In this document: positions 52,450 to 56,734 of the stretch, in pieces
How the letters are laid out: each line of letters opens with the position of its first letter
Position numbering within the stretch: position 1 is the first letter of the stretch
Source of the DNA: Dictyostelium discoideum
Taxonomy: Eukaryota
Length of the DNA: 64,000 bases
NCBI GenBank assembly: GCA_000004695.1
Contig: CM000154.2
Coordinates: 2,560,001 to 2,624,000, forward strand
Direction: 5' to 3'
The notes under the pieces: generated by a model
What the model was told of the DNA's origin: nothing
Databases searched by the model: none
The model's input: only the letters and a program-made list of their open reading frames with translations
Position numbers and translations under genes: made by a program

Positions 52450-54759
52450 TTAATTTGATTTATAAATTGGAATTAAAATTGAAGCAGCAAATCCTTGAGA
52501 AAAACTACCTTGATTACAAGTTGGATTACCAACAACATAGCCTGGTTGAACAACTAATGAATTAGTTTTAATTGAAACATAACTACCTTCAAGAGCTTCC
52601 AAATTATTGTCAACTGTGAAATTTGCAACCTTGTTACCGTTAATATCAATTACAGCAATATCGTAATAATGATGACCAAGAGCACCTGAATAGTAATATG
52701 TTGAGGCTAATCCAGCAAAATGAGTTTTAACATTGAAAGTACCAACTCTATCACTTCCATTGGTCATTACGAATTGCATTGGTACTGATGTAAAATTCTT
52801 TACAGTTGGGAAAGATAATTTAAACATTCCACTATATTTACCGACCATATTGTAATAGGTCACAGAGGTAGCTAAATTCCAACCATAGGAAGATGTGAAA
52901 ACTTCTTGTTTTGAAACTCCATTATTCCATAACTTATCGGTTAAAGCTTTTGGAGGATGGGAGTTACAGTTATCGATTTCCGCCATAATATAGGTTCCAG
53001 TACTATCAGTATAAGAGTAATCATCACTTGAAACTGGTGCATAGTAACCAGCTGGTGTAAAGTAAATTTGATAATTAGTTGGTAATAACATTTGAATCAT
53101 TGCAGTTTGGTAAGCTATAGAAGCTATGGTAGAAATTTTTTGAAAGTCTAATCCATTGATATTGAGTGAGGATGGATTATTGGTTGGTAAGAAACATAAT
53201 GCAAAGGTTTTACTCATCATGCCCCAATCTTGTAAAATGGTATTTTTCATACTTTGAGCATTTGCCATTTCATTTTCATAATTTTCATTTAAATGATCAT
53301 AGAGTTTACTTAATGTAACTTGATAGGTTGATGGGCCTGAATCATTACTTTCAGCATCTAATTCACCAAATTCTACTGCTGACTCACCAATGTTTGCAAT
53401 TATTGAACCACCAATTGGTATCTCTGAAATAATTGCATAAAAAACACTGGTAATTGCATCGGTGTAATCTCCATTAACAACTTGGTCAGATGACATATCA
53501 ACATTAATTAAATTTGCCAAGTTTGTTAAATTTGTACTACCTTGACTAAATAATTTACTATAAAAATCGGAATAGTTATCAAATACTAAACGGACATTGA
53601 TTGCGTAGGTGAGTTCATTTTTGATTTGATTTTGAACATTTGAAAAATCTTCAGTTGAATGAATTGATGATGGACAAGTTGCATTGGTGACATTAACATA
53701 GAAAATTTCTAAACTAACATTAATACTTGTATAAAGTGATCTAATGTCATCAGTATAACCATTTGTTGCAATATTACTAAGGTATTGGTATGATGCTAAT
53801 AAATCACCACTTGTGTAAGCTGGAAATGGTTCTGGTACTTCACTAACAATTTGGTTTAATGAATAGGTTGGATTTGCAATCCATTGGAAATTAATATTAC
53901 CAGCACTAGTTGGTTGAGCTAATACACAATTAACAGTTGAATCAACTCCAAGTTCGCCAACGAATCCAATACATAAATTTGGATAATATTGATTGAAAAT
54001 TTGATTATTTTCGTTGATACCCCATTGTTGCATTAGATCATTTGCTTTGTAAACATTGGTATTTAAATAATAGTTTGTTTTACTACCATTAATTGATGGA
54101 CCAATATCTAATACTAAATTACCATCCAAACGTGATAAAATGTGACCATCGTTTGTCATTTGCCAAATTTGACCTATTGATTTTGCTTGAACTTTATTCA
54201 TTACTACACTAGTATTATATGATGTACTATTATTTAATACACTTAGACCCCAATAATTATTATTGGAATCCAATTTTTTGCTTTGAAAGTAACCCCAATT
54301 ACCAGTTGGAATTGGTGCTCTTCTAAAAGTTGTCCATTTTTGAGTTGCGTTTCCATTTAAAGGTGCAACACAAATATTCAAATTGTCGATATCAAGGTAT
54401 TTACCATTACCTTGGTTTTGAATTTTATTATTTGTTGTATCAATTGTCCAAATTTGAGTTTTTGAATTTGAATTAAGTTGTACTAATTCAACAAAATAAC
54501 CACCTGATGAAACATCTAAAACAAAATTACCACTGGATGTAAAGATATGACCATCATCTGAAAGAAGCCATGTTTGAATTGACTCAGATGCTACACATTG
54601 GAATGTATTACTGGTTGATAAATAATATGGTGTAATATTATTTGAACCTTTGAATAAACTTTTTGCTGCGAATGGGTATTTTGTTTTTGAACTTGTACTT
54701 TTTAATTGTTTTTCTTCACTTTGATTTGAAGATTTTGAAATATCTTCAATATTTATCAT
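52450..54759 (-). CDS. secreted ricin-B (beta-trefoil) lectin-domain protein with a large C-terminal beta-rich domain of unknown function
   Basis: 769-aa ORF; repeated QxW motifs (TQIWTI, TQKWTT, GQIWQM, MQQWGI) in the N-terminal ~300 aa. Confidence 0.7.
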
Positions 54760-56285
54760 TTTTTTATTTTTAATTTTTTTATTTTATTTATTTAAATTTT
54801 TTGTTTTAAAAGTTATTTAATTTATTTTTGAGAATGAAAAAAAAAAAAAGTTTTAAAGTATTTATATTTTTTTTTTTAAAGTCTATTATTTTTATTTTAT
54901 TTTTTTAACCCATGGTTTAGATCTTTGTTCAAGTCAACACCAACACAGGTGTCAAAATGGAGTGTTATCTTTCACTCATTGCATTTTTTAGGGTTTGTGT
55001 TTTAATTGGCGAAAGTGTGAATCTTTATAATAAAAAAAAAAAAAAAAAAAAGAAAAAAAAATTTAAAAAACTGTTTATCAAAAAAAATAAAAATTTCTTC
55101 AAAACACCAAAAAATGCCAATCTTAAATTTAAAAAACTGTTTATCAAAAAAAATAAAAATATCTTCAAAACACCAAAAAAAAAAAAAAAAAAAAAATATA
55201 TAATTTTTTTGATAATAGATTTAAAAAAATAAATAATTAAAATAAAATTGAAAATAATTAGAGTATCACAAAGATTTTTTTTTTTTATTTTTTAAATATT
55301 GGTTCATTTGAAAAAGGATTAATACAAATTAAATTTTATTATTTTTTTTTAAAAAAAATTAAATATAAATGATTTACAACACTTTTATATTAGATCTAAA
55401 CTTATGTTTTTTATTATTATTATTATTTTTTAACACTTTTCAATCCTTTTTTTTTTTAATTTCCTTTTTTTTTTTTTCCAAAATTCAAAAATTCAAACCC
55501 TAGGTATTATTATTTGTTATATAATTATTAAAAATATTTTTATAAAATATATATTTTTAATAATTATATAACAAAAAATTAGATTAATTTTAGTTCAAAA
55601 GATGAAGCAACAATACTTCAAAAAGAATTAAATTACCAGATTATTTTTGATTGAAATTTATAAATCCTTTTTTGAAGTGTTTAGTGTTTGGAATATAAAC
55701 AATCAAATAAAGATTTATAATTTGAATATTCAATTATTTGTTAATTTAATTCTTTTTTTGAAATATTGTTGAGTCATCATTTCATCACCTCTACTAAAAA
55801 CAACAACAACAACAATAATAATATATAGTTGTAATAGTTCAACACCTCTATCAGCTACTAAGGTAATCTTTTCGATTCATCTCAACCAACAACACAATCA
55901 ATCATCCAAAAGTCTCCTTCACTGATAAACTTTGTGTACCTGGTTTATGATTAGGCCAAACTACACAACTCACTTCAAATAATCAATAATATTGATACTG
56001 GTGCTAACATGATTCATTAGTAGAATGCAATGTTGTGGGTTTCAATGTTCATCATGGCAGTGGAACTTTACAAACCCATAGAATTTCCTTTTCATTTAAA
56101 TCATTTTTAGAAAAAATATATAAAAAATAAATAATAAATAAAAACTCAACTATTTACTACTAGTTTATTATTGGGGATCATTTTCTTTTCACCATCCAAC
56201 AATTTTTTTTTAAGGATTTATTTTTAATTTTCAATAATTTGATAAGAATATAAATTGGTTTTTATATTCTGATAATTTTATTTTT

Positions 56286-56615
56286 TTATTCTGATTTATA
56301 AATTGGAATTAAAATTGAAGCAAAAAACATTAGAGAATAACTACCTTGATTACAAATTGGATTACCAACAGCATAACCTGGCTGAACAACTAAAGAATCA
56401 GTTTTGGTTGAAACATAACTACCTTCGAGAGCTTCTAAATTAATGTCAACTGTGAAATTTGCAACCTTGTTTTTGTTAATATCAGCTACAGCAATGTCGA
56501 AATAATGATGACCAAGATCTCCACAACTGTAATATGTTGAAAAGAATTTTGCAAAATGAGTTTTGACTGTGAAATTACCAAGATTATCACCATCATTGGT
56601 CATTACAAATTGCAT
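56286..56615 (-). pseudogene. duplicated C-terminal fragment (~110 codons + stop + a few nt of 3' flank) of the ricin-B lectin gene
   Basis: [104 protein letters not shown] versus 52450-52810; ~85% nt identity including ctgatttataaattggaattaaaattgaagca. Confidence 0.7.
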
Positions 56616-56734
56616 TGGTACTCCTGTAAAAATTTTAATTGTTGACTGTGAAATTACCGATTATCAATCATTATCATCATCAAATAATAACGCCGTTCAA
56701 CTACTGATAATGAGTATCTGAAAGAGAACCTGAT

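Follow-up and report, generated by a model that had tools for sequence, protein, structure and literature searches.

The cupC locus of Dictyostelium discoideum AX4: a known lectin gene beside the truncated tail of another cup paralogue

A 64,000-nucleotide (nt) stretch of Dictyostelium discoideum DNA (the window; contig CM000154.2, positions 2,560,001 to 2,624,000) carries a gene for a ricin-B lectin and, 3.8 kb upstream in the same orientation, a short second copy of the end of that gene. The locus raises the question of where the short copy came from, and whether the sequence beside it records the mechanism that left it there. The original prediction took the copy for a dead duplicate of the adjacent lectin gene and a short word found near it and near a second gene fragment for the mark of a capture mechanism. 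The best explanation of the locus as a whole, which we consider very probable, is that the lectin gene is cupC, that the short copy is the truncated tail of a different, B-type cup gene in a segmentally duplicated patchwork, and that the shared word is a chance match. The coordinates of all features are collected in Table 1.

cupC and the truncated cup tail upstream of it

The product of the lectin open reading frame (ORF) is an exact match to CupC (UniRef100_Q7Z202, XP_636312.1, EAL62788.1). Identical DNA, over the stretch compared, is present at ~2.67 Mb of CM142511.1 in assembly GCA_054883475.1 (locus L001). The window is D. discoideum AX4; its G+C content is 11-33% and it contains ORFs with poly-Asn/Gln tracts. 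Two ricin-B lectin repeats lie at the CupC N-terminus (Pfam PF00652 Ricin_B_lectin, E = 4e-16, two stretches), in agreement with the predicted lectin domain, and the Pfam scan of CupC found no other family. A first family search with CupC returned matches restricted to cup proteins. By its sequence, the lectin gene is thus the already known cupC of the published Ca2+/calcineurin-regulated cup family (cupA-cupJ), whose members are ~770-residue acidic proteins with ricin-B motifs and whose paralogues are both tandem and dispersed on the same chromosome; the gene described here shows no difference from that family. The cup genes are reportedly induced by Ca2+ through calcineurin and encode acidic proteins with ricin motifs. 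The cup work of Coukell et al. 2004 (Eukaryot Cell 3:61) is referenced in PMC3188802 and PMC1431509, and PMC12750705 describes cupB, cupC, cupF and cupG as co-expressed and co-regulated, under hypoxia. In the cup literature besides Coukell et al. 2004, no description was found of a B-type stump, of a difference in array copy number or of the C-terminal fold.

AX4 carries further cup genes on the same chromosome: a cupB-cupF tandem pair at ~3.40 Mb (the array) and the singletons cupG at 3.55 Mb and cupH at 4.39 Mb. The loci compared were those of cupC (L001), the AX4 array (L004/L005), cupH (L009), a locus of strain ACTFIW (L007, JBTAPG010000034.1) and arrays with four cup genes (L002/L003/L010). 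The short copy upstream of cupC is real. Positions 56280-56637 align with 52444-52802 at 85% nucleotide identity over 360 nt, and tblastn places Cup residues 652-770 at 56642..56286 with 76% amino acid identity. This is the predicted copy of the last codons and stop codon, and an ATG-initiated ORF of 109 codons lies within it at 56286-56615. Similarity to cupC continues for only ~9 nt past the stop codon, in place of the ~30 nt of shared 3' flank first proposed.

Identities over 359 nt show that the closest relatives of this stump are other cup genes. The stump is 97.2% identical to cupH, 96.4% to cupG and 94.7% to cupB, compared with 84.4% to cupF and 83.8% to cupC; against the first gene of the arrays in strains ACTFIW, ACTFIR and ACTFIZ the values are 92.8%, 92.8% and 91.4%. 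The cup genes fall into a B-type (cupB, cupG, cupH and array position 1) and a C-type (cupC, cupF and array positions 2-4), and on these identities the stump is the 3' remnant of a different cup gene of the cupB/cupG/cupH type, not a copy of cupC. Because the stump is B-type and cupC is C-type, the 85% that drew attention to the pair is the plain distance between the two kinds of paralogue. The same ~85% separates array position 1 from positions 2-4 in other strains. The B-type comparisons rest on just 10-19 differences in 359 nt.

The 3' flank of the stump leads to the same genes. Window positions 56211-55796 match L009 12413-12826 at the cupH locus with 97.1% identity, and the stump together with its flank (L001 8116-8961) matches both L005 and L009. 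Stump and cupC stand head-to-tail, with the stump upstream, and this arrangement repeats that of cupB followed by cupF in the main array. A local partial duplication of cupC that has since diverged to 85% would account for the 3.8-kb distance, the shared orientation and the identity to cupC itself. Against it stand the 94.7-97.2% identities of the stump with cupB, cupG and cupH and a ~490-nt flank that matches theirs and not that of cupC; we assign this origin a negligible probability. The prediction that the copy arose at the DNA level and not through RNA holds, since homology covers ~490 nt of non-coding 3' flank as well as the whole intergenic region and reaches the next gene. No poly(A) tract is present at the 3' end, and the stump has the features of a non-processed duplicate.

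The stump and cupC belong to one larger unit. A single unbroken alignment joins L001 8116-12538 (window 56644-52222) to L005 11952-16592, 0.72 Mb away on the same chromosome. On the array side it begins 357 nt before the cupB stop codon, spans the intergenic region and cupF, and extends 240 nt beyond the cupF stop codon. Gap-free identity is 94.7% in the stump, 93-97% in the intergenic region, 98% in the coding sequence and 96.4% in the 3' flank, and it drops to 20-40% directly outside both ends. At the level of sequence, these alignments show the block to be a DNA-level segmental duplicate of the cupB-cupF array. The single collinear block implies that the stump and cupC were duplicated, or retained, as one unit.

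Other strains place the duplication in time. ACTFIW, ACTFIZ and ACTFIR have four tandem cup genes in the array where AX4 has two (cupB and cupF), between the same flanking genes. Orthologous flanks of AX4 and these strains are 93-95% identical and cupC and cupF are 98% identical, from which we infer that the shared block arose after the strains had separated. The right block end (~52222) falls inside a fragment of a Snf2/Brg1-type gene. The Snf2 frame runs across this boundary at the cupC locus, and the array holds only the last ~70 nt of the fragment (52222-52292), downstream of cupF. Only the cupC locus has the Snf2 piece in continuous form, and the four-cup arrays of ACTFIW, ACTFIZ and ACTFIR lack it; on these grounds copying from the cupC locus to the array is the favored direction, and the AX4 array would have been remodeled by that copy. 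An exact look-up of a nearby 132-residue protein, made to locate the region in other strains, returned AX4 only.

The left block end (~56644), where B-type cup homology begins at CAACAATTAAAA, has a different character. The truncated 5' end of the stump carries a filler of ~45 nt that is an imperfect copy of a segment inside the stump itself (blastn 83.7% over 49 columns, E = 3e-5). An exact 17-mer, GGTAATTTCACAGTCAA, lies within the filler, which terminates in a CAA microhomology. End joining and replicative template switching typically leave filler of such local origin, and the left end was probably made by one of these processes. The proposed sequence of events starts with a locus that held a complete pair of cup genes, B-type and then C-type. 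Parts of that locus would have been copied to the array in the AX4 lineage. Later, a rearrangement would have removed the first 650 codons of the B-type gene, and its repair by end joining or template switching would have left the 45-nt filler copied from nearby sequence.

Several observations pull the other way. The left end favors the array or cupH as the source, the B-type gene being complete there, and the only complete version of the 501-residue gene beside the shared block is at the cupH locus. With these two genes complete elsewhere, no fewer than two or three events are required, and for the left part of the block copying in the opposite direction, from the array to the cupC locus, is possible. 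Gene conversion among the cup paralogues may also blur the identities on which direction and age are judged.

Whether the stump is dead is a separate matter. It is without the first 650 codons, the conserved ~370-nt cup promoter region and the first strands of its beta-sandwich, and its 119 codons contain no stop or frameshift. The absence of stop codons is explained by its youth, at ~3% from cupH. The ratio of nonsynonymous to synonymous substitution rates (dN/dS) between stump and cupC is 0.65. The changes on its own branch are five nonsynonymous and one synonymous, small counts, all at positions invariant in other B-type genes. These changes are consistent with relaxed constraint, in numbers too small to prove neutrality. 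Death is a conclusion from truncation and not from disabling mutations, and it has to be set against the automatic annotation of GCA_054883475.1, which makes the stump the final coding exon of a 1370-residue gene.

That gene model runs from ~60662 to 56286 in the window (L001 4098-8474), ends at the stop codon of the stump and joins three open segments (1015, 301 and 124 codons; two frames) by two introns totaling 264 nt. Recruitment of the stump as the terminal exon of the upstream gene would yield a chimeric protein ending in most of the Cup beta-sandwich. The frame of the stump is still open, and a phase-0 GT...AG pair, AAT/GTTTTAAT ... TTTCACAG/TCAACA, is visible in the sequence. The model, however, was predicted automatically, and its GTTTTA donor is unlike GTAAGT, the usual Dictyostelium splice donor. 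The upstream ORFs need a further 161-nt 'intron' across a change of frame, and this part of the model may be a patched, frameshifted pseudogene. A search of a 5.8-billion-protein collection with the 292-residue upstream ORF joined to the stump returned one Cup protein only and no match to the ORF, not even an AX4 reference protein. The missing first strands of the sandwich and the lineage-specific changes at invariant residues also argue against a used exon, and we consider exonization improbable. The preferred reading is that the stump is a pseudogene fragment.

The minus-strand form of the shared word, TTCTCTTTCAG/ATA, was also considered as a splice acceptor and dropped as not needed, the predicted intron having its acceptor at TTTCACAG further on. 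Five gaps of 100 N are present in the window (1279-1378, 18278-18377, 19447-19546, 35780-35879 and 59712-59811); one of them interrupts the ORF that precedes the stump, and the newer assembly has closed it.

The stump has the properties of the non-processed pseudogene fragments that remain where segmental duplications end or tandem arrays have contracted. As in these, homology continues through the flanks without poly(A), one breakpoint falls within a gene, and the junction filler is copied from nearby as in end-joining or template-switch repair. The locus differs from the usual fragments of this class in being a composite of at least five sources within 5.9 kb, and in having a 4-kb segment bracketed by a trinucleotide microsatellite.

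The word shared by the two fragment ends

The capture reading holds that one mechanism, a transposon terminus or a recombination hotspot, took up both gene fragments and left tatctgaaagagaa at the junctions. The two fragments are the cup stump and a piece of gene B, the 1305-residue ORF at 40672-44589. The region is a patchwork of gene pieces, and each fragment has a word close to one of its ends, equally oriented in both: an exact 12-mer, or 14 of 16 matching nt if a 2-nt indel is allowed. Shuffled versions of the window contain 0.01 copies of this one prespecified 11-mer. The sequences are gtatctgaaagagaa at 56714-56728 and tatctctgaaagagaa at 51119-51134, not at the 56700-56715 and 51123-51138 first given. 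The nearly identical 14-mer described at both sites survives only as the exactly shared 12-mer TCTGAAAGAGAA (51123-51134 and 56717-56728), and the sequences flanking it do not align.

The match is not exceptional when it is posed as any word shared between junction zones. In 1500 random sets of four 201-nt zones with matched G+C content drawn from the window, 55% shared an exact match of at least 11 nt and 30% shared one of at least 12 nt (P ~0.30). In single pairs of 120-nt segments, an 11-mer match occurred in 0.6-2.6%. Neither site is exactly at a fragment junction; site 1 begins 14 nt beyond the gene-B homology, and site 2 begins 71 nt beyond the cup breakpoint at 56644. Site 1 is 15-18 nt inside a block shared with the cupH locus and has the reading frame of the final 26 codons of a relic gene (..NGISERENEKISQQAREFMKSML, then stop) that is an intact 501-residue gene at the cupH locus. 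There the paralogue reads TAACTCTGAAAAAGAA and differs at 2 motif positions. The location inside a 705-nt block that is also present at the cupH locus makes site 1 inherited coding sequence and not the product of a junction.

Beyond its two sites, the 12-mer was absent from ~150 kb of Dictyostelium loci, and it was not at the duplication ends of cupB/F, cupG, cupH or the three four-cup arrays. The 11-mer has one further occurrence, inside an unrelated gene. The scope of this search, ~150 kb of loci, limits the case for a chance match. No terminal inverted repeats bracket the fragments; apart from a 29-nt hairpin at 55509-55579 (97%), the inverted matches were AT-rich, of low complexity and no more than 83% complementary. 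Pfam scans of the ORFs at 38-64 kb detected FNIP, SET, Ricin_B and Helicase_C, with DUF5792 and GIY-YIG below threshold, and no mobile-element domain; transposase, reverse-transcriptase and integrase domains are absent from the neighboring ORFs. A tRNA-Arg(TCT) gene on the minus strand at 33624-33696 is distant from the fragments. The locus resembles Pack-MULEs and Helitrons in that short pieces of unrelated genes stand side by side, and differs from them in having no terminal repeats, element-type termini, recurring end motif or nearby transposon proteins.

Taken together, these results largely refute the capture reading, which we regard as very unlikely. On this sequence evidence the motif probably plays no part and the 12-mer is a chance match. 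The two 12-mer copies were also considered as a target-site duplication around 51135-56716. This was rejected, as neither copy is at a homology boundary (50878/9, 51103-8, 52222 or 56644) and the match is at the level of chance.

The pieces around cupC

Table 1. Coordinates of the features of the cupC locus in the window.
Feature	Coordinates	Strand	Description
Gene-B fragment	50882..51107	+	226 nt, 88% identical to 42242-42462 inside the 1305-residue ORF 40672-44589, 8.4 kb away
Block common to cupH locus	51103..51807	+	705 nt, 95.1% identical to L009 13522-12807; duplication direction either way
Motif site 1	51123..51134	+	Starts 14 nt past gene-B homology; inside cupH-type block, encodes ..ISERE..
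CAA-bracketed segment	51826..55800	.	3975 nt: Snf2 fragment, cupC and intergenic region; not at the collinear cupH locus
Snf2/Brg1-type ATPase pseudogene fragment	51990..52292	+	Helicase_C part; in-frame TAA at 52197-52199
4.4-kb block	52222..56644	-	Stump, its 3' flank, intergenic region, cupC and 228 nt of 3' flank; collinear with cupB-cupF array
cupC coding sequence	52450..54759	-	769 residues, single exon
3' flank of B-type cup	55796..56285	-	~490 nt, common to cupH and cupB loci; ends in (CAA)5 at 55801-55815
3' stump of B-type cup paralogue	56286..56644	-	Codons ~651-769 and stop, 119 codons, no frame disruption
Filler at truncated 5' end of stump	56642..56685	-	~45 nt, imperfect copy of 56563-56610 inside stump
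Motif site 2	56717..56728	+	71 nt from cup breakpoint (56644); 6 nt past stop codon (56735-56737) of ORF 56735-57613(-)
Upstream neighbor ORF	56735..57613	-	292 residues, no Pfam family

The prediction that the fragments sit at special junctions and are not products of random decay was partly right: the region is a patchwork of pieces at rearrangement breakpoints, and the sequence repeated at a junction is a microsatellite, not the motif. The gene-B fragment is real, a copy of an internal part of the 1305-residue ORF, and it adjoins the truncated end of the cupH-type block at 51103-51108. That 705-nt block consists of the 3' end of the gene relic together with a small called gene, with (CAA)~28 at its end (51742-51825). 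At the cupH locus the same block follows the cupH 3' flank after one uninterrupted (CAA)22 tract (L009 12807-12872) and runs into the intact 501-residue gene. The array has (CAA)23 after the cupB flank (L005 12805-12873). In the window the repeat is split between the (CAA)~28 tract and the (CAA)5 tract at the end of the stump's flank, and judged from the sequence it is (CAA)n that is truly repeated at a junction and brackets the cupC-bearing segment. The bracketing looks like insertion or recombination at a trinucleotide repeat.

The Snf2 fragment is supported by Pfam (Helicase_C, E = 7.8e-6), by PDB matches to SNF2L2/Sth1/BRG1 (E = 5e-22) and by tblastn (E = 3e-25). Upstream of it, an AT-rich stretch at 51840-51989 that ends in TAG looks like a retained intron. 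The left CAA junction would be a microsatellite-homology junction if the Snf2/Brg1 gene reads (CAA)n, ..SINNHSTGLSSGVS, intron, ..CINHPYLF in one piece. Positions 51135-51740 were considered as an SNF2_N fragment, inverted and then on the same strand; Pfam, four-frame PDB searches and tblastn with an approximate BRG1 segment were all null, and the stretch was resolved as part of the 95% copy of the cupH-locus block.

To the left, positions 48101-50878 are 92-95% similar to the ACTFIW locus L007. Similarity stops at 50878/50879 (L007 9899), 3 nt before the gene-B fragment, and ACTFIW continues past that point with unrelated genes (FNIP, TIG/EGF). L007 has just 2.8 kb in common with the window and may be a paralogue, which reduces its weight as a reference for this boundary. 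The alignments resolve 50879-56734 into pieces from at least five sources. Because the pieces are bounded by microsatellite, microhomology or filler, they point to repair or recombination and not to transposition. The CAA-microsatellite junctions and the nearby-copied filler make the locus a small, well-resolved example of a gene-fragment patchwork without transposons.

Further features were recorded nearby. The intergenic region upstream of cupC contains a palindrome at 55509-55579 (29-nt arms, 97% complementarity, 13-nt spacer) and a ~190-nt imperfect self-complementary stretch at 55597-55782 (76%). ORF 49390-49695 (region 49390-49720, minus strand) contains 66-nt tandem repeats that are 77-86% identical and encode the protein repeat ..MRNGxQKAGNGARNYA... 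ORF 49692-50384 has a subthreshold DUF5792 match and is called together with ORFs 49390-49695 and 50248-50760 as one gene of 418 residues.

The C-terminal module of Cup proteins

The ~470 C-terminal residues of the lectin were described at the outset as having no obvious family and as recalling aerolysin-type toxins. The first statement stands, as Pfam finds no family for residues 296-769 in CupC or in any of 45 aligned family members. A library-wide phmmer search with this segment returned 144 cluster representatives, of which 45 members were aligned. The relatives looked up include other dictyostelids (D. purpureum, Polysphondylium and Heterostelium), bacteria (Methylovulum and Methylobacter) and metagenomes. 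Bacterial and metagenomic relatives reach E-values down to 6e-32, and examples are WP_019868280.1 (P0034, Methylovulum miyakonense), P0038 and P0040. Their heads are mostly ricin-B and in some cases B_lectin; among the 45 aligned members 34 have Ricin_B and 4 have B_lectin. Lectin heads are thus exchangeable in the wider family.

An AlphaFold2 (AF2) model of CupC residues 296-769, built with 45 diverse homologues, has a predicted local distance difference test score (pLDDT) of 90.1 and a predicted template modeling score (pTM) of 0.86. It has a helical domain at residues ~300-560 followed by a beta-sandwich at ~563-769. Foldseek against the PDB matched ostreolysin A/pleurotolysin A, AfIP-1A and actinoporins, the best match having E ~1e-3, a probability of 1.0 and a template modeling (TM) score on target of 0.56. 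The same search gave no structural match for the helical domain, and no aerolysin, ETX/MTX2 or LSL structure was among the best 50-60 matches listed. The family profile matched only ricin-B chains among PDB sequences. PF06355 (aegerolysin) had no match in CupC or in any of the 45 family members, and no match to solved aegerolysins was found.

The model indicates that the Cup beta domain has the aegerolysin beta-sandwich fold, and that the module is aegerolysin/actinoporin-like by fold only. The aerolysin-type likeness does not hold for the model, with its helical residues ~300-560, its aegerolysin/actinoporin-like sandwich and no aerolysin among those best matches. The nearest fold likeness is to aegerolysins (ostreolysin A/pleurotolysin A, Cry34Ab1 and RahU; PF06355) and actinoporins (FraC and sticholysin II). 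Known aegerolysins are free-standing proteins of ~15 kDa that act with a MACPF or Toxin_10 partner, whereas the Cup domain is fused behind two ricin-B repeats and a ~260-residue helical domain without a structural match. LSL of Laetiporus sulphureus and CEL-III share with Cup an N-terminal ricin-B lectin followed by a membrane-acting module, which in Cup is putative. They differ in that module: LSL has an aerolysin-like beta domain and CEL-III its own beta-rich oligomerization domain, and the Cup model has a helical domain and an aegerolysin-like sandwich. CEL-III was matched by the Cup profile search in its lectin region only. No paper linking Cup to aegerolysins was found.

CupC residues ~430-460 are strongly hydrophobic and form a predicted helix-turn-helix within the helical domain. 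In the model this stretch is reminiscent of the buried membrane-insertion hairpins of alpha-helical toxins. Under Ca2+ stress, Cup proteins reportedly move to the membrane, and a lipid-binding sandwich would fit such a movement. Joining these points, a tentative reading, which we hold as possible and no stronger, is that the C-terminal 470 residues are an undescribed membrane-acting module composed of a hairpin-bearing helical domain and a lipid-binding sandwich, with exchangeable lectin heads and a distribution that covers dictyostelids and bacteria (Methylovulum). Cup proteins would then be endogenous lectin-targeted membrane-binding proteins, possibly pore-forming or membrane-stabilizing, with an ancestry among bacterial toxins, and the cupC locus would be a young hub that spawned AX4-specific cup copies through microsatellite- and microhomology-mediated rearrangements.

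The finding itself is largely ordinary: a gene already known, a pseudogene stump of the ordinary non-processed kind and a motif shared by chance. The outcome removes a false lead, the supposed capture motif, and places the gene in a published family. Of modest interest are the resolved patchwork, the difference in array copy number and the assignment of a fold with bacterial relatives to the Cup C-terminal module. The contrast between a two-cup array with dispersed copies in AX4 and four-cup arrays in three strains indicates that reshuffling of the cup family continues within the species. PMC3188802 calls Cup dictyostelid-specific; the bacterial and metagenomic relatives with swapped lectin heads indicate, contrary to that statement, that the module is not. 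The aegerolysin/actinoporin-like model offers a testable reason why Cup proteins would associate with membranes in a Ca2+-dependent manner.

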